A DNA stretch of 64,000 nt from Candidatus Yanofskybacteria bacterium (GCA_016185525.1 JACPNK010000005.1:92473-156472); one strand, 5' to 3'. Counted from the stretch's first letter, positions 20,888 to 55,561 are shown. Notes: generated from the letters alone by a model not told the origin. Program-made: numbers and translations.

Positions 20888-21069
20888 TTACTACCTCCTT
20901 TTTTGACAAAAACCGACTGAAACGAAAGTTCAGCCCACATCATACCATATCTTATCGTTGTTGTAAATAGCAACAACAAACAAGATAACAAAAAAGCCCA
21001 TATTCAGGCTATTTCTTACTCTTAAACTCTTATTAAAATTTTTCTTTTCTGCTTCTATAAAATATGGTT

Positions 21070-21191
21070 TCCTCTAGAGGCGGGGTTTTCGGGGAAGTGA
21101 AACTTTTCACTTTCCCTCAATACCCTTCTCATCCCACCAAAACAGATAATTAACAATACCTTCAAAAGGAAGATATTGTTAATTCCTGATG
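21070..21191 (-). repeat. tRNA 3' trailer element, copy behind tRNA-Leu
   Basis: 59 nt core matches 30488-30546 at 49/59 with compensatory stem changes. Confidence 0.7.
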
Positions 21192-21274
21192 TGCTCGGGG
21201 TGGGATTCGAACCCACATGGGCTTGCGCCCACAGCATTTTAAGTGCTGCGTGTAAACCATTCCACCACCCGAGC
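21192..21274 (-). tRNA. tRNA-Leu(TAA)
   Basis: GCTCGGG acceptor, CAGCA-CTTAAAA-TGCTG anticodon arm, long variable arm, TTCGAAT T-loop. Confidence 0.95.
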
Positions 21275-21285
21275 AATTTAGATTT

Positions 21286-21996
21286 TCAAGTCTTCTCACT
21301 CTTCTTAGCCCATTCTACCGCCTCGGCCAAAGAGTGGAAAGTGCCTGCGTCAACCCAAAAACCCCCAACAAATTCAGCTTTCATTTTTTTATTCCGGATG
21401 TAGGCGTTGTTTACGTCAGTGATTTCAAATTCGCCGCGAGCCGACGGCTTAAGCGTGCGGATAATATCAAACACTTTTGAATCATACTGATACAACCCGG
21501 TAACAGCAAAAGGGGATAGCGCTTTTTTGGGCTTTTCAACGATGGCCGAAACCAGCTTGCCTTTTAACGTCGCCACACCGAATCTTTCCGGATCCGGAAC
21601 CTTCTTTAAAAATATCCTTGCTCCGCCGGAAAAAGTTTTGATTGCTTTGGAAAAAGTATCCTCAAAAACATTATCGCCTAAAATTACAGTCATTAAATCT
21701 TTGCCGACAAATTCTTCGGCTAGCAAAAGAGCGTGAGCTATGCCCAAAGTTTTTTCTTGCACTCTATAGGTAAAATTTGCCCCGAAATCTCTGCCCGAAC
21801 CAAGATATTCTATAAAATCTCCGGAGTGCTCGCGCCCGGAAACGATTAAAATGTCTTTTATACCAGACTTTAAGAGGGTGTTTAGTGGGTACTCAATCAA
21901 GGCCCGGTCAAAAACGGGCAACAAACTTTTGTTTACTAAATTTGTCAGCGGCCGAAGGCGCGTACCGTTGCCGCCGGCCAAGATGACTCCACGCAT
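21286..21996 (-). CDS. Glucose-1-phosphate thymidylyltransferase (RmlA/SpsI-like)
   Basis: GVILAGGNGTRLRPLT, LGDN, EKP, SARGEFEITD, W.DAGT. Confidence 0.93.
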   Translation of the reverse strand: MRGVILAGGNGTRLRPLTNLVNKSLLPVFDRALIEYPLNTLLKSGIKDILIVSGREHSGDFIEYLGSGRDFGANFTYRVQEKTLGIAHALLLAEEFVGKDLMTVILGDNVFEDTFSKAIKTFSGGARIFLKKVPDPERFGVATLKGKLVSAIVEKPKKALSPFAVTGLYQYDSKVFDIIRTLKPSARGEFEITDVNNAYIRNKKMKAEFVGGFWVDAGTFHSLAEAVEWAKKSEKT

Positions 21997-22007
21997 GGAT
22001 AATTTGT

Positions 22008-22442
22008 TTAAATTGGTTTGTGTCTAGATTTATTTAAAACTTTCATTCTTAAATAAATCTTTTCTAGCCTTGCATCACTCTCTGGATTTGACTTGGGTTT
22101 TATAATAGAAAGGGCATCTAGCAAGAGCTCGGCTTGTTTTTTCTTTACACGGATGTGCTGTAACATGGGTGGCAAGAACTTTCTAATCTCGTTTGAATAA
22201 AGAGTGAGATAGTACATTAACCGTTTACTGCCTTTTGCTTCGCGCAATCTTTTTTTATCAAATTTTTGCATGATAAACTCCAATCCCTCTTTATCTGACA
22301 TTCCAACAGATATGCGTAACTCCCAAACCCAGCCCCGCTTGCCACAATGTTTTGTTTTTGCAAAATGTTTAGCAACTACAAAACTTCCTTCGCCGTCGAG
22401 TAGCCCTGCTATATAAGCATAGTCCGTATCAGTTAATTCCAC
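22008..22442 (-). CDS. Free-standing single-motif LAGLIDADG endonuclease
   Basis: AYIAGLLDGEGSF, RVKKKQAELL; GTG start 6 nt after TAAAAT. Confidence 0.88.
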   Translation of the reverse strand: MELTDTDYAYIAGLLDGEGSFVVAKHFAKTKHCGKRGWVWELRISVGMSDKEGLEFIMQKFDKKRLREAKGSKRLMYYLTLYSNEIRKFLPPMLQHIRVKKKQAELLLDALSIIKPKSNPESDARLEKIYLRMKVLNKSRHKPI

Positions 22443-22508
22443 GGGTTAATTTTATCATACTGTATTGAGATTACCACCCGCACAATATACACCTTTCATT
22501 GTTGAAAG

Positions 22509-23063
22509 TTAGTAATTTTTAGGCGATGTTGGATCGTAATTAAAATGAAAATACTCTCGTTTTTTGCCTAATCTAAAACCATTATTCTGCATAATGCCTA
22601 TGAGTATTTCTTGAAGTTCTTGGTAGCTTCTGTTGCTTTGTTTATAAAAATCAACAAAATAGCCATTAATTCCATCTTTCTTGTCATGTAAAATAATTTT
22701 TTTACCATCTTTCCACGATGCCACGTCTACTGACTTGCCAGTCGAGTGGGGCATATCGATTATATTTAGTATACGATTGGTATCAACTTCGCCGATTTTC
22801 TCTTTCATTTTGTTATTAACAAGAGTATACAAGTCTTTTGATCTGTATCCTTCTGTAATGTAAAGCCGATACTCTTTATTTTGAAGTTCTCTATCAGCAC
22901 TTTTTAATGCCTGAACTATGTCTTTATGAACCAAAACACGCTCGTCGTGCAAATCAACACTTACTAGATCTTCCTTAGAAATTCCTATTTCAACTCCTTT
23001 GCGCCAATAAAAATTACTGCCTAACAAGTCATAATCGTCAATGTAAACAAAGTTTTTGTCCAT
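22509..23063 (-). CDS. M15-family D-Ala-D-Ala dipeptidase (VanX-like)
   Basis: I.EGYRS, HSTGKSVD, EYFHF zinc motifs. Confidence 0.82.
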   Translation of the reverse strand: MDKNFVYIDDYDLLGSNFYWRKGVEIGISKEDLVSVDLHDERVLVHKDIVQALKSADRELQNKEYRLYITEGYRSKDLYTLVNNKMKEKIGEVDTNRILNIIDMPHSTGKSVDVASWKDGKKIILHDKKDGINGYFVDFYKQSNRSYQELQEILIGIMQNNGFRLGKKREYFHFNYDPTSPKNY

Positions 23064-23065
23064 TG

Positions 23066-23137
23066 AGGCGGCAGCGAGAATTGCACTCGCGTATATTCCT
23101 TTTGCAGAGGAACGCCTTACTCCTTGGCTATGCCGCC
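23066..23137 (-). tRNA. tRNA-Cys(GCA)
   Basis: GGCGGCA acceptor, TTCCT-CTGCAAA-AGGAA, U73; T-loop TGCAATT. Confidence 0.92.
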
Positions 23138-23139
23138 GT

Positions 23140-23481
23140 CTATTTCTCTTTAACTTTTTCTATTATTTTCTCTACTTCAGCTGCTCTTTCCTCTGTTTCA
23201 TCCAGAACAAAAAACAATTTGGGAACTGGCCGCATTTGCAGTTTTTTATTCAACGTCTGCTGAAAAAAATATATATTTCTGTTAATATTTTCCAAAACTT
23301 TTTTAGCGACATCTAAAGGAAAAATGGAGACGTAGACCCTGGCGTGATTATGATCCTCCGAAATAACTGCCCGGGTTACCGTAACCAAAGCTTCAAAATC
23401 AAGATCAAGTTCGCGATGCAAAATCTTTCCCACCTCATCTCTAACCAAATCGCCAATCTTTTCTTTACGATATAACGACAT
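23140..23481 (-). CDS. rbfA: Ribosome-binding factor A
   Basis: R.EKI, VTVT, S.D...ARVY, MRPVPKL.F..D; follows infB. Confidence 0.93.
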   Translation of the reverse strand: MSLYRKEKIGDLVRDEVGKILHRELDLDFEALVTVTRAVISEDHNHARVYVSIFPLDVAKKVLENINRNIYFFQQTLNKKLQMRPVPKLFFVLDETEERAAEVEKIIEKVKEK

Positions 23482-23510
23482 AAAAAATTAATAAGAAATA
23501 AATTTTTAAC

Positions 23511-25040
23511 CTAGAGCGATCTTTTTATTTTTTCCTCTTCGTAAACTTCTAAGATGTCTCCCTCTTTGACAAACATATTTGGAGCGATCGGCTGACCGAA
23601 ATCAACTCTTAAGCCGGCCTCTAAACCCTCGGCGACTTCTTCAACATCCGCTTTTTGCTGTTGAAGCTGTCCGAGCTTTCCTTTCGTTATTACATTACTG
23701 TTTCTAGTTACCTCAATCAACGCGCCTCTCTTGATTTTACCAGAAACCACTTTTCCTCCCACAACCTGATTTTTAGGATCCTTTTTGAATAAGGCCAACA
23801 CCTTAAGCTTACCCAAGGAAATTCTATTAATTTCCGGGTCTAAAAGGTCGGACATCTTTCTTTTTACCTCCTCCACCAGTTCATATATTATATCAAAGGA
23901 TTCCACAACAACTCCTTCTCTTTCTGCTATCTGACGAAGAGAACTACTGACCGGAACGTGAAAACCGACAACCACCGCTTTGGTTGCTACGGCCTTTTTA
24001 ATATCGCCCTCCGAAATATTACCGACACCGTAATCTACAATTTTGTAACTTACCTCCTCCGATTTTATCGTCCTCAAAACTTGGTCAATTGCCTCAAGAG
24101 AACTTGAAACATCGGCTTTCACAATTAAGTTCAGGCTTTTATTTTTACTTTTTTCCGGACCGCTTTCTTGGACAAAAATTACCGGCTGGCCCAACGTTGA
24201 ATTCTCTTTGGCCAGTTTTAAAGCTTCTTCTCTGGACTCAGCTTTTCTTACAATAGAGCCTAGGATTGGGGGAGTACCCCAGCCCAAAACTACCGAAGGC
24301 TTTGAAGCGCCGGCTTCCGTTATACTTCTGCCCAAAAAGTCTGACATTGATTTTATCCTGACAGCTTCCGCTCCAGCAACGACCCAGTCGTTAACACGAA
24401 AAAAACCGCTTTTCACTAAAATTGTAGCCACGTAGCCACGTCGGCTGTCAAGATGCGAATCAATTATAATTCCGGTGGTGGAGGTGTCGTCTGATTTCAG
24501 TTCTTCCAGCTCGGCTACCAGAAGAATCATCTCCAGCAAAGAATCTATGCCTTGCCCTGTTTTCGCTGATACTTCAACTGCCGGGACTTTACCGCCCCAC
24601 TCTTCTATAAAAACATTATTTTCAGAAAGTTCCTGTTTAACTCTCTGCACATTGGCATTTTCTTTGTCCACCTTGTTTATGGCAACAATAAAAGGAGTTT
24701 TGGTGTCTTCAATAATTTTGATAGCTTCCTTTGTTTGCGGCTTGACTCCTTCATCGGCGGCTACAACCAGAACAGCTACATCGGCCACGTTAGCGCCTCT
24801 GGAACGTATGGCTGAAAAAGCTTCGTGGCCGGGTGTGTCCAAGAACGTAATCATCTTTCCATTAGACTCTACTTGATAAGCTCCGATATGTTGGGTAATC
24901 CCGCCAGCTTCGCCTTCGGCAATTTTAGTCTTACGAATATAATCCAGAATTTTGGTCTTACCGTGGTCAACGTGTCCCAAAACAACCACAATTGGTGGTC
25001 TGGTTTGAAAATTTACCTTTTTTCCCTGTGTTTCTGCCAT
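23511..25040 (-). CDS. infB: Translation initiation factor IF-2 (short form)
   Basis: RPPIVVVLGHVDHGKT, GGITQHIGAY, DTPGH, NKVD. Confidence 0.97.
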   Translation of the reverse strand: MAETQGKKVNFQTRPPIVVVLGHVDHGKTKILDYIRKTKIAEGEAGGITQHIGAYQVESNGKMITFLDTPGHEAFSAIRSRGANVADVAVLVVAADEGVKPQTKEAIKIIEDTKTPFIVAINKVDKENANVQRVKQELSENNVFIEEWGGKVPAVEVSAKTGQGIDSLLEMILLVAELEELKSDDTSTTGIIIDSHLDSRRGYVATILVKSGFFRVNDWVVAGAEAVRIKSMSDFLGRSITEAGASKPSVVLGWGTPPILGSIVRKAESREEALKLAKENSTLGQPVIFVQESGPEKSKNKSLNLIVKADVSSSLEAIDQVLRTIKSEEVSYKIVDYGVGNISEGDIKKAVATKAVVVGFHVPVSSSLRQIAEREGVVVESFDIIYELVEEVKRKMSDLLDPEINRISLGKLKVLALFKKDPKNQVVGGKVVSGKIKRGALIEVTRNSNVITKGKLGQLQQQKADVEEVAEGLEAGLRVDFGQPIAPNMFVKEGDILEVYEEEKIKRSL

Positions 25041-25095
25041 ATTAGAAGTTCAGAAAATATAGCATTTTAAAGTGTTTTGGGCAAATTGTTGTATC

Positions 25096-25288
25096 ATATC
25101 AAACTTGGCAAACACTGCTTCTTTAGTACGTTCGTCTGCTCCTGCCTGCCTGCCGGCAGGCAGGCGGCAGACTCACTCGCGCTGAAGTTGGGGTTTGCTC
25201 GCAGTTAAAAGAATAATTATACTGCTCGCAACCAAGCAACCCTCAACTTCAGAGCGACCGCAGAAGCAGTGTTTGCCAAGTTTGATAT
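25096..25288. repeat. Structured multi-stem element, copy B
   Basis: 27 bp perfect outer inverted repeat; loop blocks shared with 1227-1371; contains CCTGCCTGCCGGCAGGCAGG. Confidence 0.75.
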
Positions 25289-25315
25289 AAAAAAACCGCT
25301 TCTTGCGAAGCGGTA
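25289..25315 (-). terminator. Terminator of the PBP gene
   Basis: ACCGCTTC..GAAGCGGT hairpin with T run on the minus strand. Confidence 0.65.
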
Positions 25316-25338
25316 CCTGTTTGTTTAGATACCGGAAT

Positions 25339-27282
25339 TTATATAGGATTTATAATCTTTTGAACCTTTTCCTCCACGGCAGAAGAGAAGCTGGCTTTAG
25401 GTTTGTCTTTGTATATTTCTTCTATAATCCGCCTGCATATCGGGGCGGCAAGCAAACCTCCGGTTTGTCTGGCACCGATGCTTTTAGGCGTATCGTAGCC
25501 AAGCCTGACTCCGACCGTATAACCACGGCTACCGGGGGTGAAACCAAAAAACAAAACATCTCGTGACTCATTTGTTGTTCCTGTTTTTCCGGCAACTTTT
25601 TGTTCTATGCCTTTGAAAGTTAGTTTAGCCGTTCCAATTTCGGTAACCGCTCTCATCAAAACTGTCATGTCTTCAGCAACTTTGGGAGAAAGTACATTTT
25701 TTACTACCGACTCTTTTTGAAAAAGTATCTTGCCTTCAGAGTCGGCAATTTCGTAAACGATAACCGGTTCGTAATAAGAGCCTTGATTGGGAAAGACAGA
25801 AAAAGCGGTCGTAAGCTCCAAAAGACCGACTGACGAAGCGCCTATTGCTGTCGGCAAGTATGGATCAAGTTTGCTTTTTATGCCCATCTCGTGAGCTGTT
25901 TCTATTATCTTCTTAATGCCGATCCGGCTAGCCAAAAATATTGTCGCAACATTTCTGGAGAGAATAAATCCATCGCTAGTGTCGATGAGACCCATAAAGT
26001 CGGGGTGAGATTTCTCGTGGTAATTTCTAGGACTCCACCACTTTATAACCTGCCCATGAAAACTTATTTTTCCCGGCAAATGAATTGGACAGTCACAGAT
26101 TTTATCGTTAAATTTCCAACCTTCTTTCAAGGCCGTAGCATAAGTAAAAATTTTAAAAGCTGAACCCGGTTGACGTATGGCCGACTCTTGGACAGCCCGA
26201 TTGTATTTCGTCTCAGCAAAATCGTGCCCACCGACAACTGCCACTATTTTTCCGGAAAAGTTCTCAATCACCACTACCGCGCCTTCAAGCTTTTCTTTGG
26301 TATTACCCCAATCATTATTTAACTTAGCAAGATGTTCACTCAAAGCACTGACAGCAATATGCTGAATATGGCTGTCTATTGTAGTTTTGACTTTCAGACC
26401 GCCTTTGTGCCAAATTTCCTCACTATCATAGCCCTTTTTCAAGAGAACCCGGCGAACAAAATCTTTTGCGTAGTTAAAACTGGAGTCAACCTTTGACAAG
26501 TTCAGGCTTATTGGCTCCTTAGTCATTTTTTCGTACTCCGACTGACTGATAAATTTGTTCTCTTTCATTAAAAGCAAAACCAAATTTCTTCGCTCCAGAG
26601 CCGCCTCTTTTTTGTTTATCGGAGAAAAGCGTGCGGGGGATTTAACCAAGGCGGCCAGCATGGCTGTTTCCGGCGCCGTAAGTTCTTTGAGTTCTTTGCT
26701 AAAATAATATCGGCTGGCTTCAACTATGCCGAAGCGGCCATAGCCGAAATAAACATAGTTTATATAAGCTTCAAATATTTCTTGCTTGGTATAACGGCGT
26801 TCAAGCTGTATAGCCAGACGAGCTTCCTTTATTTTTCTCCAGTAAGTTTGATCTCGTCTCTTAAACTCCGGTATCTCGTCTTCGTAAAGAAAACGATCTA
26901 GTTGTTGAGTAATTGTGCTAGCACCAGAAACTACACGCCGGCTCATTTTGTTATGAAGCCAAGCCCGTAATATCGCTCTCGGATCAACACCCCAATGAGA
27001 AAAAAATCTCTTGTCTTCTGCCGCTAAAATAGAGTTTTTGACAAGTTCCGGAATGTTGTCAAATTTAACCGGATCCCTGTTTTCATAGAAAAACCTGCCG
27101 GCAATTTTTTCATCTTTTGAATAGATGTATGAAGACTGCTTGAGTTCAAGATGAGAAAGTTTCTTAATATCCGGCAAATCATCTGTTTTAAAATACAGAT
27201 AATAAAAACCGTAAGAGCCGGTCAAAATAACTGCCGTCAGCAAAGACAACAAAAAAAGGCCTATTTTTTGACGTAATCTCAA
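25339..27282 (-). CDS. Class A penicillin-binding protein (PBP1A family)
   Basis: Transglycosylase EDKRF, GASTITQQ, RKIKE; transpeptidase SAFK, SRN, KTG; TTG start with AGGAGG. Confidence 0.93.
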   Translation of the reverse strand: MRLRQKIGLFLLSLLTAVILTGSYGFYYLYFKTDDLPDIKKLSHLELKQSSYIYSKDEKIAGRFFYENRDPVKFDNIPELVKNSILAAEDKRFFSHWGVDPRAILRAWLHNKMSRRVVSGASTITQQLDRFLYEDEIPEFKRRDQTYWRKIKEARLAIQLERRYTKQEIFEAYINYVYFGYGRFGIVEASRYYFSKELKELTAPETAMLAALVKSPARFSPINKKEAALERRNLVLLLMKENKFISQSEYEKMTKEPISLNLSKVDSSFNYAKDFVRRVLLKKGYDSEEIWHKGGLKVKTTIDSHIQHIAVSALSEHLAKLNNDWGNTKEKLEGAVVVIENFSGKIVAVVGGHDFAETKYNRAVQESAIRQPGSAFKIFTYATALKEGWKFNDKICDCPIHLPGKISFHGQVIKWWSPRNYHEKSHPDFMGLIDTSDGFILSRNVATIFLASRIGIKKIIETAHEMGIKSKLDPYLPTAIGASSVGLLELTTAFSVFPNQGSYYEPVIVYEIADSEGKILFQKESVVKNVLSPKVAEDMTVLMRAVTEIGTAKLTFKGIEQKVAGKTGTTNESRDVLFFGFTPGSRGYTVGVRLGYDTPKSIGARQTGGLLAAPICRRIIEEIYKDKPKASFSSAVEEKVQKIINPI

Positions 27283-27450
27283 GTAGCTTGCCTCCTTTCT
27301 TCAGATTTTAAGGTTCTTTGTTTTGAATAAAAATACCACTTTTGTGAAGTAGTTCAAGCGCTTAGCGTTTTTGGCGGTAAGTTTACTTTTTTAAAATCTT
27401 CTTCTATACTTTGGGCAAATAGGTCTTATGTTCTTTGAAAAGGGGGCGAT

Positions 27451-28569
27451 ATGAAAGTAGATACAGCCATCATTGGCGGAGGAGTTGTGGGATGCGCAAT
27501 AGCCAGACGCTTAGCCACAACTCAACCAGGAACAAAAATTGTCGTATTGGAAAAGTTGGAAAGCGTCGGTCTGGAAACCAGCAGTCTGAATAGCGGTGTT
27601 TTGCACTCCGGCATCCATCAGAATCCAAACTTTCTGAAGTCAAAATTGGCCAAAAAAGGCAGTAAAATAGCGGCCTGCTACATGAAAATACGCTCCATAC
27701 CGATAATGCGTTGCGGAATGCTGATAGTGGTTTCTTCAGAATCTCTTAGGCACGGCCTTTACAAAGAGTGGCTGGATCTGTGGCGCTTGATAAAAAGGGG
27801 ACAGGAACAAAAAATAGACTTAAAATTTTTGACTCCTTTCGGCATAAGAAAAATTGAACCAAATATAAAAGCGCTTGGCGGAATTTTTATACCCAATGTT
27901 TGGGTTGTTGATCCAGCAGGCTTCACAAATTCTCTTTATCAGGAAGCTAAAGCAAAAAAAGTTGAGTTCTTTTTTAAAAATCCCGTCCTGTCGGTTTCCA
28001 AAAACAACGACTCTTATTGCCTCGCGACTCCAAGCAAAGAATTTTTTGCAAAAAAAGTAGTCAATGCTGCAGGTCTTTATGCCGACGAAGTTGCCAAAAT
28101 GGCCGGTTTTGCGGGATACAAAATCTACCCTTGGCGAGGCGAATATTATGAGGTGATCGGTGAAAAGAAAAAACTAGTCAGCCGTCTGGTTTATCCGGCA
28201 CTGCCCGCCAACTACCCGGGAAAGGGGATACATTTTAGTCCCAGAGTTGATGAGAGATTATTCATTGGTCCAAATGCCCGGCCGGTTCCCAGAAAAAATT
28301 TCTACACAGAATGTAAAACTCCTGTTGAAGAATTTTTAAAAACAACACAAAAATTTTGTCCTCAAATTAAAGAAGAAGATTTGGTTTGGGCTTATTCCGG
28401 TATCCGGCCCAAATTGACCAATGCCGCCGAAGAGTCAGATTTTATAATAAGGTTGGATAACCGTAATCCCCATTGGTTAAATTTGATCGGCATTGAATCT
28501 CCCGGACTTTCTTCTGCTATGGCTACTGCTGAATATGTAGAAAAGCTTTTAAACTCACCGCCAGGGTGA
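27451..28569 (+). CDS. FAD-dependent oxidoreductase (L-2-hydroxyglutarate oxidase LhgO-like)
   Basis: GGGVVG, TSSLNSGVLHSG, NAAGLYAD, RGEY, GIRPK, GIESPGL. Confidence 0.88.
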   Translation: MKVDTAIIGGGVVGCAIARRLATTQPGTKIVVLEKLESVGLETSSLNSGVLHSGIHQNPNFLKSKLAKKGSKIAACYMKIRSIPIMRCGMLIVVSSESLRHGLYKEWLDLWRLIKRGQEQKIDLKFLTPFGIRKIEPNIKALGGIFIPNVWVVDPAGFTNSLYQEAKAKKVEFFFKNPVLSVSKNNDSYCLATPSKEFFAKKVVNAAGLYADEVAKMAGFAGYKIYPWRGEYYEVIGEKKKLVSRLVYPALPANYPGKGIHFSPRVDERLFIGPNARPVPRKNFYTECKTPVEEFLKTTQKFCPQIKEEDLVWAYSGIRPKLTNAAEESDFIIRLDNRNPHWLNLIGIESPGLSSAMATAEYVEKLLNSPPG

Positions 28570-28580
28570 GTTTTTGTTAC

Positions 28581-28666
28581 TGGCGGAGAGGGTGGGAGTC
28601 GAACCCACAAGTCCTTACGGACGCCGGTTTTCAAGACCGGTGGAATAACCATTATCCGACCTCTCC
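28581..28666 (-). tRNA. tRNA-Ser(TGA)
   Basis: GGAGAGG acceptor, CCGGT-CTTGAAA-ACCGG, long variable arm, GCCA end. Confidence 0.95.
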
Positions 28667-28790
28667 AGGGTATTAAGGAATCTCACTTTGTGCATATTCT
28701 AACAGGTACACATTCTGACAGGCAAGGCCTGTAAAAGTGCGCATATTTTCTTCTCTCCTTCGCGACCTACTTCCCGCTGTCGCGTTCTTC

Positions 28791-28875
28791 TGGCGGAGGA
28801 TGCAGGAGTCGAACCTGCAAGGGATTGCACCCGGCGGTTTTCGAAACCGCTGCCATGCCATTAGGCGAACCCACC
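28791..28875 (-). tRNA. tRNA-Ser(CGA)
   Basis: GCGGT-TTCGAAA-ACCGC, long variable arm, GCCA end; U3:U70 mismatch. Confidence 0.9.
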
Positions 28876-28896
28876 AAGTTTTTCGGTAAGACCCAA

Positions 28897-29151
28897 TCAA
28901 TAAATGTTATGTTTGCCGACAGCATAAAATCTTATGATATTCTTGTCGGCAAAATCAAATATTATCCGGTACTGATAATTTATAGAAAAAGCCCAAAACT
29001 CACCAAGTTCACCGTGAAGTTTGTGGGTTTTGAGGTGTAAATCAAACGGGTTTATTCTAAAAATTTTCTCTTTTTTTATTGCCAGCGACTTGACCTCTTT
29101 GGGCAGTTTCTTAAATTGCTGTTTAAACTTGGAGTAGTAAAATATCTTCAT
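28897..29151 (-). CDS. RelE/YafQ-like mRNA interferase toxin
   Basis: F.QQFKKL, NPF...LKTHKLHG, WAFSINYQYRIIF, VGKH.IY. Confidence 0.88.
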   Translation of the reverse strand: MKIFYYSKFKQQFKKLPKEVKSLAIKKEKIFRINPFDLHLKTHKLHGELGEFWAFSINYQYRIIFDFADKNIIRFYAVGKHNIY

Positions 29152-29156
29152 TTTAT

Positions 29157-29366
29157 CTATTCCAAATCTTCCAGAGACTTAAGGATTTTCCAATTCTTGC
29201 CTTTACCAAAGTCCCTCTTGGCTTTTTCAAGTTCTTTGGCCAGTTCGTGGACACGCAAAAGATGGCGAAAGAACTCGCTGACACTGGCAAAGTTGCCGGT
29301 CTTTACTTCGTCCCTAACTTTTCTGGTTAATTCTTGGGGCAAGGATATGTTAATAATGTTTCTCAT
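29157..29366 (-). CDS. Ribbon-helix-helix antitoxin
   Basis: INISLP, G.FASVSEFFR; directly upstream of the toxin. Confidence 0.85.
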   Translation of the reverse strand: MRNIINISLPQELTRKVRDEVKTGNFASVSEFFRHLLRVHELAKELEKAKRDFGKGKNWKILKSLEDLE

Positions 29367-29567
29367 GGCTGTAATAATTTATATTACAATCCTAACAAAA
29401 ATTAAGAAAGAGGTCAAATCGCGAAGTTTCTATTGGCGGTGTATTCTGAAGATAGCTCGAACGCATTTCGCCGCCGAAGGCGGCGTGGTTGGCGGGCAGA
29501 AATCCGCGCGGCGAAGCCGCGAACATTAACAATTTCAAGTTTTTCTTTGGCGGCAAATTCAGAATTC

Positions 29568-30266
29568 TTATTTCGTAAATCCGAAAGTCCCCGTAATCTG
29601 GTCAATAAAGAAAGTTTTGTTGGCTAAGACAGAAACACTTTCTTGAGGTATACCATTATTGCCTGTGTAAAATTGGAATAATTTACCATCTTTGATGAAC
29701 TCAATGTCCCGCTCTTTATTTCCGACGCCCTCTCCCTCGGACATTTCAAAAGTATTTACGATAGCTTTAACACCGCCGATAGTTTTATATGAGGTCACAC
29801 AATTCGAATTTGATGAACATGCCCTTTCTTCAATGGTTTTGGATGGACTTGGATCAACTATTTGAAAACCAACAAACATGTTCTGTCGGTCATAAAAATT
29901 TTTCTGTTTCTGTTGTAATTTACTATCTTGAAAATAGAATGAAAAAGTATTTAATTTATTGTTGTAAAGTGGTGGTTCCTGTTTTTGTTCTTGAAAACCT
30001 TCAACTATCCAATCTTGTGGATACTGAACTTCAAAACCATATTTTTCACTTCTATATATTTGCCAACCAGGAATTTTATTTGATGATTGTGTGTTGTTTG
30101 AGGTTGTCGGTTTTTCGGCAGTCTGGTTATTCGTTGGGGCTGGGGTATTGATCTGTTGAGCAATTTCCGGCGATTTTTTCACAAATGCAAAATACCCCAC
30201 TACACCAGCAAGCACTACAACTAAAACTATGAGAACAATATTCACAAATCCTTTTTGTTGGTTCAT
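29568..30266 (-). CDS. Membrane-anchored PsbP-like protein with pilin-like N-terminus
   Basis: QKGF then TM helix; T/N/P linker; GWQIYRSEKYGFEVQYPQDW; ends DQITGTFGF. Confidence 0.78.
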   Translation of the reverse strand: MNQQKGFVNIVLIVLVVVLAGVVGYFAFVKKSPEIAQQINTPAPTNNQTAEKPTTSNNTQSSNKIPGWQIYRSEKYGFEVQYPQDWIVEGFQEQKQEPPLYNNKLNTFSFYFQDSKLQQKQKNFYDRQNMFVGFQIVDPSPSKTIEERACSSNSNCVTSYKTIGGVKAIVNTFEMSEGEGVGNKERDIEFIKDGKLFQFYTGNNGIPQESVSVLANKTFFIDQITGTFGFTK

Positions 30267-30419
30267 GTGTTTAAAATTAATTTCTTAATTATGCAAAAAT
30301 TTCTTTTGCCCTTCACTCTCAAATCCTTTTCCTTTTCGCCAAAAAAGCCTTTTCAAATCCTATGCGAGCGGCGCATCTCGCGCCGCGAGCTGACCTCTTC
30401 AAATTTGCATTTTCCCAAC

Positions 30420-30611
30420 TGGCGGAGGGAGTGGGAGTCCTCTTCCTCCGAAAATTTCTATATGCCTAAAGGCATATAGAAATTTTCTCCTCCAGAGCCG
30501 GGGTTTTCTAAAAAGTGAAATTATTCACTTTTTCTCAATACCCTTCGACTCCCACTCTTGCATCGACAAGTAGCATAAATAGTTAGCAAAAGCTAACTAT
30601 TTATGTACATG
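30420..30611 (-). repeat. tRNA 3' trailer element ending in a duplicated tRNA-Ser 3' end
   Basis: 30420-30439 repeats the tRNA-Ser(GCT) 3' end with CCA; three hairpins; core shared with 21070-21128. Confidence 0.75.
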
Positions 30612-30697
30612 CGGAGGGAGTGGGAGTCGAACCCACCTGACCCCTTTCGGGGTCGGAGATTAGCAATCTCCTGCACCAGCCGATATGCGCCCCCTCC
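30612..30697 (-). tRNA. tRNA-Ser(GCT)
   Basis: GGAGA-TTGCTAA-TCTCC, long variable arm with GAAA loop, TTCGACT T-loop, G73. Confidence 0.93.
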
Positions 30698-30722
30698 AAA
30701 TTCACCAAATTTTACCATATTT

Positions 30723-31475
30723 TTACCCTTTGGCAACGACCAAACCGATGACTTTTTTTGCTCCGGCTTCTTTTAATATCCGAGCGCATTCGTCTAGGGT
30801 TGCTCCAGTGGTGGCAATGTCATCCACCAAAACGACTGTTTTGTTTTTTATTTTTTCCGGCCTGGGGCAGACAAATATGCCTTCCGTATTTTTTATCCTT
30901 TCTTCTTTGTTTTCTATCTCCGCTTGAGGCTTTTTATTTTTTGTCCTCTCCAAAACACCAACAGCAATTTCTAATTTAAATTCCCCGGCCAGCTCTTCGG
31001 CTAAAAGTTCTGACTGATTGTAAGAGCGCCAGTTAAGCCTTAAGCGGTGCAGGGGCAGGGGAATAAGGACAACCTCGCTTCGGTAACTGTCAAAAAAGCG
31101 GTCTTTGTTTTTTTCTTTTAAAAACTTTATCAGAAGTTTGCCAAGGGGTTTTTTTGCCGAAACTATAAACTTATATTTTAAAGCCCAAAGCATTTTTTTG
31201 ACTAAAGGTTCTTCGTAACTGGCGGCTATCCAGATAAAGTCCAAGTAATGATTCTTTTTGCAAAATGGGCAGGTTTCGCCCTGGCTGGCCGGGGATGAAC
31301 AGAAGGCGCACTCAAAACCTTTTCTTAAGTTTATTTTTTCAAAACAAAGCCGGCAGAGGTGTTTGTCGGGGTCAGAAGCATTTTGTATTTGGCGGCAACC
31401 AAGGCAGTGAATAGGGAAAAGAAGGTCAAACAAAAAGTCCTTTAGGCTTTCTATGGATAACTTGCACAACTTCAT
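30723..31475 (-). CDS. comF: ComF-family competence protein
   Basis: Double zinc ribbon, P.PLH..R..WRSYNQ, LVDDIATTGAT. Confidence 0.92.
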   Translation of the reverse strand: MKLCKLSIESLKDFLFDLLFPIHCLGCRQIQNASDPDKHLCRLCFEKINLRKGFECAFCSSPASQGETCPFCKKNHYLDFIWIAASYEEPLVKKMLWALKYKFIVSAKKPLGKLLIKFLKEKNKDRFFDSYRSEVVLIPLPLHRLRLNWRSYNQSELLAEELAGEFKLEIAVGVLERTKNKKPQAEIENKEERIKNTEGIFVCPRPEKIKNKTVVLVDDIATTGATLDECARILKEAGAKKVIGLVVAKG

Positions 31476-54304: not shown

Positions 54305-55561
54305 GTGGTCTTTGCCCACGAAAAACTTGCGAGGATTTTACGCACTAAACCAGAAGTGCTTTTAAGTTTGGAAGAAAAAATGAACTCTCTTACCGGTAAA
54401 AGCGGGGTTATGGAAAAAATATTGATAGAGAACGATATTTTGGTAAAACGTACTTTGAGCGAATTGGGTTTGTCTGAAGCCGGACTTAAGGCCGAGAAGG
54501 TTTATGATGCTTTAGTTGCCAGAATTGAGTATATGGATAAGGATTTATATAACTTTTTAGGCAGACCAATTCTTTCTGAAATGTCAGGTGTTTGCGGAAA
54601 ACTTTGCGAAACCTCTCTGTTTTTAAACAAACCTAAAACCGGTTTTTTTATCAAAAAAGAGAAAGCTGTTGAAATGCTGGAAAAATTTCCACCACAAAAT
54701 TTGCTGGACCATTTCGGCTATAAAACGGCCGAAGAGCTTGTTCGGAAAGAAGGCTTCTCGTCTGTCGTCTCGGCATTGCGCTTTGCTCAGGACTCAAAAT
54801 GGATGCATGAGTTTTTTGATAGGGCATATAATGAGCTTACAGCCGAAGATTTTGAAGAACGTGAAGTTGAGCTGAAAGTTTTGGAAACTAAGTGGCTGGA
54901 TGTGGCGGAAAAATTTTTGGAAAAGAAATACCACAATGTCAGCCATCTTAAAGAATTTGGCGTTATTTTTATTATTCCGTTGGAAATAGACACCAAAGGG
55001 GAAACCCTGAGAATGTTTACTTTGATACTCCACTACCTCAATGAGGTGCCTTTTTATTCAAAACTTTTCAAAAAGTTTTCTGTGGAGGAAAATTTTCCTC
55101 CTAAATTAAAATCACTGCTGCGTGGTGACGTTGCAGAAGGGCCGGCGCCCGACAATGCCGTCAGAATTGTTCAACGGTATCTCGCCAAGGACGACAAAAA
55201 TGACTTTAGGCTTTTTGAGCCGCATATCAATCCCGAGGCCGAACACTGGTACAAAGCGGAAACTGATTTGGCAAACTTGAACTCTGTGCCTGAGGAAAAA
55301 GGGCGCGCTACGGGTTACTGGCGCGGGTTGGATTTTGTCGGCGACTTTTTTCCGGACGGGTTGGAAAAAGGCGAAAAAGAAAATTTAGTGAGTTTTGACC
55401 TTATTGACTTGGTTATGTCTTTGGTTAAGAAAGGAGAAATAAAATACTTATATCACCAGCAAGAAGCTCTCTGGAATAAGATTTTTATAGAATATCTTGG
55501 AAGGGAAAAGTTAAATGAACTAGTTGAAGAGAATATAGTTAGTGGGTTTATAAAATTTTAA
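54305..55561 (+). CDS. Hypothetical protein
   Basis: 418 aa open frame within the sugar-metabolism operon; HNVSHLKE and HYLNE segments. Confidence 0.8.
   Translation: MVFAHEKLARILRTKPEVLLSLEEKMNSLTGKSGVMEKILIENDILVKRTLSELGLSEAGLKAEKVYDALVARIEYMDKDLYNFLGRPILSEMSGVCGKLCETSLFLNKPKTGFFIKKEKAVEMLEKFPPQNLLDHFGYKTAEELVRKEGFSSVVSALRFAQDSKWMHEFFDRAYNELTAEDFEEREVELKVLETKWLDVAEKFLEKKYHNVSHLKEFGVIFIIPLEIDTKGETLRMFTLILHYLNEVPFYSKLFKKFSVEENFPPKLKSLLRGDVAEGPAPDNAVRIVQRYLAKDDKNDFRLFEPHINPEAEHWYKAETDLANLNSVPEEKGRATGYWRGLDFVGDFFPDGLEKGEKENLVSFDLIDLVMSLVKKGEIKYLYHQQEALWNKIFIEYLGREKLNELVEENIVSGFIKF

Follow-up and report, generated by a model that had tools for sequence, protein, structure and literature searches.

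A gene-less three-way-junction cassette with an antisense match to the T-loop of its host tRNA, found behind tRNA genes of Candidatus Yanofskybacteria and other bacteria of the Candidate Phyla Radiation

The DNA described here is a stretch of 64,000 nucleotides (nt) from a Candidatus Yanofskybacteria bacterium (GCA_016185525.1, JACPNK010000005.1:92473-156472), which is referred to as the window and carries ten tRNA genes according to ARAGORN, including those of tRNA-Leu(TAA) and tRNA-Ser(GCT). Behind each of these two genes, on the same strand, lies a small structured cassette, and no open reading frame (ORF) is found between its repeats or elsewhere inside it. The window holds one intact copy (Ser) and one internally deleted copy (Leu) of what is a protein-less three-way-junction cassette of bacteria of the Candidate Phyla Radiation (CPR). 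The order of its parts, read from the tRNA, is hairpin 1, a segment antisense to tRNA nt 54-63 (in places to 67), hairpin B, helix C with hairpin 3, and a repeat of the tRNA from nt 57 onward. The intact copy is composed of the following parts.

30611..30697 (-): tRNA-Ser(GCT) (ARAGORN; 35.5 bits with the Rfam tRNA model)
30611-30628 (-): first copy of the direct repeat (DR1), the last 18 nt of tRNA-Ser, nt 57-74 (read from the sequence)
30575..30604 (-): AT-rich hairpin 1 with a 13-bp stem and a TTTT loop (sequence, minimum free energy (MFE) fold)
30558-30574 (-): degraded complement of the acceptor 3' strand, 17 nt, upstream of the antisense segment
30544..30557 (-): antisense (guide-like) segment GAGTGGGAGTCGAA, 14/14 complementary to tRNA-Ser nt 54-67
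30500..30543 (-): core hairpin B, GGGTATTGAG - stem-loop - GAAAACCCC (pattern, alignment fold)
30440..30499 (-): helix C, consisting of the CTCT/AGAG lower stem, a 7x7 internal loop and hairpin 3 (fold)
30420..30439 (-): second copy of the direct repeat (DR2), GACTCCCACTCCCTCCGC followed by CA, 18 nt identical to tRNA nt 57-74

The tRNA-Ser gene ends in GACTCCCACTCCCTCCGC and continues with ATG (C|ATG), and CCA is not encoded. Among the 43 tRNA genes of this genome CCA is encoded in about half, and nearly all others have C74 followed by a base other than C. An earlier reading made from the sequence alone (the sequence-only reading) had placed a duplicate of the tRNA 3' end at 30420-30439, which is borne out as 18 nt corresponding to tRNA nt 57-74 plus CA, and downstream of DR2 follows the native-looking flank GTTGGGAAA. 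Hairpin B is a long helix that includes a tandem G-A step and a bulged A, and the internal loop of helix C is purine-rich (GGAGGAG / CGGAGGA), the order in the Ser copy being GGCTCT-GGAGGAG-hairpin-CGGAGGA-AGAG. The first 11 nt of DR2 pair with the antisense segment and close a three-way junction. The antisense segment is able to pair with either repeat, which results in two near-equal folds of the locus; in the MFE fold the tRNA body pairs with the second repeat and the remainder forms an insert in the T-loop, with hairpin 1 as the tip of a single long imperfect hairpin made by DR1 and the antisense arm. A simple terminator scan neither flagged hairpin 1 nor detected any other terminator between tRNA-Ser and its cassette.

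The Leu copy retains the 5' part of the same arrangement.

21191..21274 (-): tRNA-Leu(TAA), ending GAGCAC|AT (ARAGORN)
21148..21184 (-): hairpin 1 with 16 pairs, terminator-like (fold, terminator scan)
21126..21138 (-): antisense segment GGTGGGATGAGAA, 11/13 to the T-arm
21082..21125 (-): core hairpin B (core pattern)
21070..21081 (-): remnant of helix C, GC-CTCT|AGAG-GA (sequence; compared with the empty site in the related genome G008)

Orthologous tRNA-Leu(TAA) genes without a cassette end in GAGCACCA, compared with GAGCAC|AT in the window. That this copy lacks the third hairpin and the repeat had been noticed before, and the reason is a fusion of the two lower-stem strands, CTCT with AGAG. 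Judged against the empty site of G008, the deletion took the internal loop, hairpin 3, the tRNA-end repeat and about 70 nt of native flank, and the family model scores the Leu copy at 55.7 bits compared with 124.5 bits for the Ser copy. Rescoring of the antisense segments returned the same values as the sequence-only reading, 14/14 for Ser (30544-30557) and 11/13 for Leu (21126-21138), the two Leu mismatches being GA opposite G57-A58.

The core pattern GGGTATTGAG-N-GAAAACCCC occurs at exactly two places in the window, 21082-21125(-) and 30500-30543(-), a result reached in none of 100 shuffles, and a pattern scan found no further true copies in the 812-kb genome. The Ser and Leu cores had been said to match at 49/59 positions with compensatory changes; the count is 47/59 over ungapped positions, and compensation in the hairpin is confirmed (GGGAAAGTGAA/TTCACTTCCCC versus GAAAAAGTGAA/TTCACTTTTTA). 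A scan of the 46 tRNA/tmRNA genes of this genome (G000) for architecture only flagged the Ser locus and one more outside the window, a cassette of a second core family behind an intron-bearing tRNA-Met(CAT) gene on contig C5 at about 54540-54750 (L296). Its core is GC-rich and different (CGCCGGA...GAGGCGGTGG...), with the antisense GAGGATTTGAA and the repeat CAAATCCTCCCCCCGCAAC, and it has no match in Rfam. The tRNA-Met gene itself is interrupted in the anticodon loop by a 789-nt group I intron (RF00028, 51 bits, cut-off 50). ARAGORN also calls anticodon-loop introns of 190-213 nt in cassette-hosting genes for tRNA-Met, tRNA-Phe and tRNA-Asn (L230 in G067, L232 in G062, L229 in G068, and G000 C2:86366-86637), the Rfam check being confined to the tRNA-Met intron of G000.

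In a pattern scan of nine genomes of the taxonomic family, true copies with a constant order of parts were found in six (G000, G003-G006 and G008), and further scans covered genomes of the order, 185,579 species genomes and metagenome contigs. The species genomes contain matches in 47 stretches, 16 matches passing a hairpin filter, and the metagenome contigs in 67 stretches, with 18 matches passing it and two (L156, L176) judged to be chance. An alignment of 26 full-length copies (A2), which is the basis of the covariance model R1, is folded by RNAalifold into a three-way junction. In helix A the antisense segment pairs with 6-11 nt at the start of the downstream repeat, helix B is the GGG...CCC core hairpin, and helix C comprises the CTCT/AGAG stem, the purine-rich internal loop and hairpin 3. 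Compensatory changes occur in 19/29 pairs of this alignment. The lower stem alone is seen as CTCT/AGAG, CTTC/GAAG, CCCT/AGGG, CTGC/GCAG, CTCC/GGAG and CTTT/AAAG, and the U7-R pair covaries as UA (8 copies), UG (7) and CG (11), CA never being found.

Applied to 105 genomes of the order, the model R1 has 30 matches, spread over 17 of them; in a sample of 151 genomes from the class there are 45 matches, which fall in 26 genomes and number up to six in a single one. About 17% of genomes carry the cassette, at only 1-6 tRNAs each. In the 28 class-level matches outside the training set 96.7% of cells pair and double-sided changes occur in 25/29 pairs, values from an alignment that was fitted to R1 and in which the structure is somewhat favoured thereby; the observed pairing is reached in 0/500 shuffles and drops to 35-58% when the 3' partners are slid by 1-3 columns. 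G-U (G-T) pairs are found on the tRNA-sense strand only, and therefore the fold belongs to that strand. The second core family has an unrelated-looking sequence and the same architecture, and neither family has a match in Rfam 15. No fit was found to hammerhead and hairpin ribozymes, k-turn/box C/D, bulge-helix-bulge or retron non-coding RNA in a by-eye comparison, which is not a test. The cassettes are an uncatalogued and widespread family of structured RNA.

Linkage to tRNA genes is found for most copies: 61 of the 70 examined, arrays counted, lie behind a tRNA or tmRNA gene, and some have no detectable tRNA. The start is at most 60 nt from the tRNA/tmRNA 3' end in 52 copies, and nine more stand in tandem arrays or 88-536 nt behind such a gene. 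In the first set of 43 copies, which was scored with intron and tmRNA detection switched on, was not de-duplicated by organism and includes the near-duplicates L012/L177 and L191/L215, 33 start 8-59 nt behind a tRNA/tmRNA and four at 173-240 nt in tandem arrays; two are cut by contig ends and four have no detectable tRNA (L034, L140, L165, L194). An independent second set of 27 class-level hits contains 19 within 60 nt, five at 88-536 nt and three without a detectable tRNA, two of these at contig ends and one being the second unit behind two genes. In L034 / L106 (G100:C51, 1-300) an ORF for an IS3-like transposase has its C-terminal end directly upstream of the cassette, in the place of the tRNA.

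The hosts comprise at least 13 tRNA identities, among them Ser, Leu, Asp, Glu, Pro, Ala, Gly, Cys, His, Phe, Met and Trp, as well as tmRNA, and tRNAs with group I introns also serve as hosts. Many copies sit behind a terminator-like hairpin. The more general idea that hairpin 1 is always the local terminator is true or likely for L205 and L233 and in part for L012, and was rejected for the window copies by comparison with the empty sites.

The variable segment had been expected to follow the identity of the adjacent tRNA, and this is found in two separate sets. In 30 unique pairs of cassette and tRNA, the match of the antisense is 11.8/14 positions to its own tRNA and 9.5/14 to other tRNAs, a difference that 0/10,000 permutations reach; in the second set the values are 11.3 and 8.9 of 14 and again 0/10,000 permutations reach them, despite one mis-anchored row. 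Tracking is concentrated at nt 54-63, where 93-100% match, and at the variable T-loop positions 57 and 59 the match is 0.90 and 1.00 compared with 0.46 and 0.37 in the control. Unusual T-loops are mirrored at nt 54-56, as ATC/GAT (L245), TGC/GCA (L293) and TCC/GGA (L288), and the 'GAA' in front of the core belongs to the antisense and not to the core. The rule is visible only because so many tRNA identities are hit. GA opposite G57-A58 is recurrent (the Leu copy, L016/L182, L285 and L288); it would form a tandem G-A step, which speaks for a folded strand rather than plain copying of sequence. Copies without tRNA linkage and a segment that mismatches the adjacent tRNA were the two outcomes that the sequence-only reading had named as speaking against it, and neither was obtained.

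Several orthologous sites are empty, namely those of tRNA-Leu(TAA) in G005 and G008 and of tRNA-Ser(GCT) in the congener G004, all of which end in CCA, and tRNA-Asp is filled in G003 and G005 and empty in G000. At filled sites the first repeat is followed by the cassette and the second by CA and the flank GTTGGGAAA..., which is also present behind a paralogous tRNA-Ser of G000 and behind the second repeats of L170 and L182. Given this likeness of flank, the second repeat looks like the displaced native end of the tRNA. A block of about 130 nt at window 30288-30420(-), just downstream of DR2, is conserved behind tRNA-Ser in G000, L170 and L182, with the motifs GTTGG.AA...CTCGCGGCG..CGCCGCTCG..AGGATTTGAAA.GGCTTTTTTGGCGAAAAGGAAAAGGATTT; it contains GGATTTGAA, which resembles another T-loop antisense, and has no match in Rfam. 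Its summed contig depth in four groundwater runs is 10 to more than 100 times that of the surroundings, and it is therefore common to many organisms.

The repeat starts at nt 57 in the family of the window and at nt 55/56 in the second family. Its 3' boundary is C74 in the majority of copies; L182 reaches C75, L170 reaches A76 and L204 extends three nt beyond the discriminator. In L205 the repeat consists of 54 identical nt that end after a whole 36-nt terminator. With repeats of 18-54 nt a target duplication of fixed length is ruled out, and the variable length agrees with an element that brings along a copy of the tRNA end and uses it for integration. A rule that the repeat ends at the 3' end of the transcript was discarded, as it fits L205 and not L233, where the repeat extends beyond the T-run of the terminator.

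In many copies (L032, L203, L229, L234 and others) the second repeat has degenerated after its initial 6-10 nt, and the Leu copy has lost it altogether; the first repeat is intact in every copy. This bears on the idea that the cassette is a T-loop intron, in which splicing would join the tRNA body to the second repeat and take out the first repeat along with the cassette. Such splicing would agree with the MFE fold of the Ser locus, with a guide that spans the would-be ligated junction, and with the presence of group I introns in tRNA genes of G000. With the first repeat intact and the second decayed, however, the working tRNA is the one formed with the first repeat, which defeats the intron reading; a terminator-like hairpin frequently separates tRNA and cassette, no intron model matches, and the second repeat of tRNA-Asp in G003 has the wrong discriminator base. 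An intron is accordingly graded as close to refuted. Group I, group II and protein-spliced tRNA introns were each considered and rejected, given the lack of an intron model match and the lost second repeat, the bulge-helix-bulge motif having been compared by eye only.

Between G000 and G003 the tRNA and cassette are 94% identical, the upstream gene is 81% identical and there is no alignment downstream, and an identical hairpin B is common to genomes of different families (G004, G085). Copies occur in tandem and decay, and arrays in G006 and G068 mix the core of the window with the second core family. The locus L287 (G205:C11, 3369-5450) consists of tRNA-Asp, a cassette, a repeat, two genes and another, near-identical cassette that has a hairpin and a repeat of its own. 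The two genes are ordinary, encoding a pyrophosphatase-like protein (below the Pfam cut-off) and a DUF6159 membrane protein, and L287 is either a cargo-carrying form or two genes trapped in an array. In L216, a metagenome contig of 1389 nt, the cassette behind tRNA-Gly stops after the first strand of helix C and gives way to unrelated DNA, in which a promoter-like TTGACA and a Cys-rich ORF of 69 codons are found; the contig is too short to contain the other end.

Mobilising enzymes were looked for in the copy-rich genomes G006, G047 and G061, the closed genome G050 and G000. RVT_1 matches in three of the five (G000, G006, G050) and has no match in G047 and G061; Phage_integrase matches in four, with one Xer-like gene in most, and not in G061 (three copies, 94% complete). 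IS110 and TnpB are found in 0/5, Y1_Tnp in 1/5 (G000 only) and resolvase in 2/5. No integrase lies inside or beside any cassette, the Phage_integrase matches being elsewhere in the genomes. The weak divergent copy L258 of G050, which follows tRNA-Ser and is separated from the Xer-like gene by about 1 kb, was judged a coincidence. A model search found no cassette at reverse transcriptase (RT) loci, and no RT adjoins any copy.

A miniature integrative element, with an arm that bears an attachment site, a tyrosine recombinase from the host (Xer-like) or in trans, and a folded single strand as substrate in the manner of integron attC sites or Xer-hijacking elements of the CTX type, would account for a repeat that reaches from the T-loop to the tRNA end with variable length, as expected if the identity is carried by the element, and for hits on tmRNA genes, the tandem arrays including the two ordinary genes trapped between units in L287, the strand-specific fold and the Xer-like recombinase of 4/5 genomes. 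It is nevertheless an improbable explanation, with no integrase in or beside the cassettes, no Phage_integrase match in G061 and no copy on viral contigs. No 5' half of a T-stem lies next to the second repeat, which means that there is no conventional double-stranded core site, and a circular form would measure only about 170 bp, which is very small. A miniature inverted-repeat transposable element or other miniature transposon derived from an insertion sequence was rejected, as the inverted arms vary with the tRNA and the repeats measure 18, 19, 20, 54 and at least 35 nt; for a cognate transposase the results for IS110, TnpB and Y1_Tnp apply, other transposase families not having been searched.

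A retroelement-type insert, in which an RT would copy the cassette RNA, the tRNA 3' end serving as primer or as partner in template switching, and the cDNA would enter the tRNA gene by recombination, is considerably less probable still. Its attraction is that the 5' arm is a degraded complement of the last 23 nt of the tRNA, with L205 and L170 starting with the complement of NCCA, that repeats end at C74, C75, A76 or the end of the terminator hairpin, and that three of the surveyed genomes do have RVT_1 genes. C74 is, however, encoded in nearly all tRNA genes of G000, and a repeat ending there therefore needs no RNA intermediate; the repeat of L233 passes the T-run and so does not end at the likely transcript end. 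G047 with four copies and G061 with three lack an RVT_1 match, and for this reason and the missing adjacent RT a retron or other RT element was rejected as well.

The tRNA genes are classic landing sites of mobile DNA, and to our knowledge every well-understood case of tRNA targeting brings its own integrase. It is proposed, with a probability of about 0.6, that the cassette is a non-autonomous and likely mobile insert aimed at the tRNA T-loop. Of the two explanations offered by the sequence-only reading, a tRNA-targeted non-autonomous element is favoured by the empty sites, the patchy distribution, the tandem arrays, the decayed copies and the lack of an internal gene, whereas a pre-tRNA folding switch, which may still exist at the level of the RNA, does not account for the comings and goings or for the displaced native end. 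The antisense of 10 nt would act as a guide that spans the 56|57 junction of the uninterrupted T-loop, in the way an intron guide spans ligated exons, and as it covers both nt 54-56 and nt 57-63 it would select the insertion site. Insertion would take place in the T-loop, where the cassette would supply the tRNA with a new 3' end, in many cases together with a terminator-like hairpin, and the native end would be left behind as a direct repeat, of which only the part needed to close helix A would be retained. Integration of the Campbell type through the carried tRNA-end copy would account for a repeat length between 18 and 54 nt. In the functional tRNA the first copy would be in use, and the second would have no role beyond providing one strand of the closing stem. 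A recombinase of the host, an enzyme provided in trans and the RNA are all candidate catalysts. Transcription from the tRNA promoter probably continues into the cassette as well, by analogy with E. coli RtT.

Several points weigh against a targeted mobile insert. The main weakness is that helix A needs the pairing between antisense and repeat in any case, so that the match to the tRNA could come from structure and not from targeting. Beyond nt 63 tracking is weak (0.53-0.63) and several copies pair at only 9-10/14. Which repeat is the native one is judged by likeness of flank, which is not proof, and the strong conservation of the core across the class would also fit an RNA that is useful to the host. 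A co-occurring recombinase or RT, which the sequence-only reading had suggested looking for, did not emerge, as none of the six families surveyed in five genomes is common to the copy-rich ones (Cas1, IntI-specific models and the tRNA-splicing endonuclease were not searched), and G047, which is 100% complete and has four copies, has a single tyrosine recombinase among the surveyed families. In 2.9 million viral contigs no copy was found, all 41 pattern matches lacking both the hairpin and the downstream motif. Neither an excised or circular form nor a population-level empty allele was found in four DNA contig runs, and among the RNA runs none contains the locus. The DNA runs contain related organisms with the cassette, and their sole joint, which links 30362 with 30611 in one contig (side 26, run X4), is probably derived from another organism with a shorter spacer.

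A further explanation is a host-useful trailer RNA of the RtT type, pre-tRNA folding switches included. It would be transcribed together with the tRNA and set free as a small RNA, would owe its closing stem and tRNA-like 3' tail to a local duplication, and would spread by ordinary recombination and transfer of tRNA loci, without a targeting mechanism. The cassette has the same build as the RtT of E. coli, which is described in the literature as processed from the tyrT transcript; the core is strongly conserved across the class and no enzyme was found; tRNA-Ser and its cassette have no detected terminator between them, and the antisense can pair with either repeat in near-equal folds. Even so, this reading is unlikely. 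Only 1-6 tRNAs per genome are occupied in about 17% of genomes and the sites of sister species are empty, many copies are located behind terminator-like hairpins, decayed copies such as Leu are tolerated, and local duplication leaves unexplained how more than 13 tRNAs each acquired a precise 56|57 junction.

A targeted insert as proposed above would be a gene-less conserved fold with a target-matched arm, present at many tRNAs and tmRNA in a large share of one CPR class. If the guide does direct insertion, the cassette would represent a minimal programmable element with no gene of its own; if it does not, the cassettes are still a widespread RNA family that annotation has missed and that inflates the counts of CPR 'tRNA fragments'. 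What is new here are the replicated tracking statistics, the covariation at nt 54-56, the frequencies in order and class, the negative enzyme survey and the direct reading of RtT. A literature search found no paper on the CPR cassette family, and PMC10714607 deals with archaeal tRNA introns and CPR rRNA introns.

The closest known system is RtT, a repeat whose sequence has been known for decades and whose role is still unclear. The architecture of the cassettes is that of RtT, yet they are not members of RF00391. The tyrT-tyrV locus of E. coli K-12 was read directly and contains four RtT units, each behind a tRNA-Tyr gene and on the strand of the tRNA. In each unit GGGGAAGGATGAGAA is complementary to nt 54-68 of tRNA-Tyr at 13/15 positions, placing GA opposite G57-A58 just like the Leu copy of the window, and is followed by a structured core and then by nt 58-76 of tRNA-Tyr itself (AATCCTTCCCCCACCACCA). 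A stem between the antisense and the sense T-arm closes the RF00391 consensus as it does the window cassette, and the units are arranged in tandem in numbers that vary among strains. RtT is present in 4726 of 5426 complete E. coli genomes at 1-9 places per genome (median 2), 18 places being on plasmids. RF00391 scores 133-138 bits on the E. coli units and, by contrast, has no hit on 30250-30750 or 20900-21320 at E values up to 10 (gathering threshold 45 bits), and R1 reaches 6.8 bits at most on the RtT units. Unlike RtT, which is known at one enterobacterial tRNA and overlaps a small ORF (tpr), the CPR family is found at more than 13 tRNA identities and tmRNA and has no ORF.

According to a 2024 preprint, rtT RNA has a role in processing of the tyrT transcript and probably in the stringent response, its mode of action being unknown, and coverage of the tyrT locus is raised in exonuclease-resistant DNA under stress (10.1101/2024.07.17.603846). 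The raised coverage is suggestive and is not evidence of circles. No paper treating RtT as mobile or guide-bearing was found in a literature search that did not cover the older RtT papers. Cassettes and RtT together may constitute a protein-less, guide-bearing class of mobile DNA, in which a three-way-junction strand of RNA or DNA of about 100 nt would select the T-loop of a tRNA or tmRNA gene by a 10-nt antisense and insert at 56|57, either self-catalysed or with a host enzyme, and could be retargeted by changing the guide; this wider proposal is tentative and on balance rather doubtful. As RtT has the same build in a tractable organism, the mechanism is testable in E. coli.

Further likenesses exist to systems with better understood mechanisms. 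Integrative elements of the tyrosine-integrase type, among them islands and prophages, reportedly use a 'T-loop sublocation' of tRNA and tmRNA genes, a term said to go back to Williams in 2002, and the cassettes share with such elements a direct repeat that spans from the T-loop to the tRNA 3' end (nt 57-74 here, with a start at 55-57 in all families seen), a carried replacement end that keeps the tRNA intact, tandem arrays at one tRNA and tmRNA as a target. They differ in being 100-190 nt long without an integrase or other gene, in having a covarying RNA-type fold with an internal antisense to the target, and in the missing double-stranded core site beside the second repeat. Intron guides, both the internal guide sequence of group I introns (P1/P10) and the exon- and intron-binding sites of group II introns (EBS/IBS), resemble the antisense in being complementary to both sides of the insertion point (nt 54-56 and 57-63), whereas the cassette has no intron core, no Rfam intron match and no intron-encoded protein, is too small, and has a dispensable 'downstream exon'. 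The integron attC and CTX-phage attP sites likewise conserve structure over a varying sequence, fold in a strand-specific manner and form arrays of units, some with trapped genes. Unlike these, the cassettes have target-specific arms and a repeat of at least 18 nt instead of a 7-nt core, and no integron integrase was seen, IntI-specific models not having been searched. The CPR cassettes add many members to the poorly understood RtT type of tRNA-linked repeat and share features of T-loop integrative elements.

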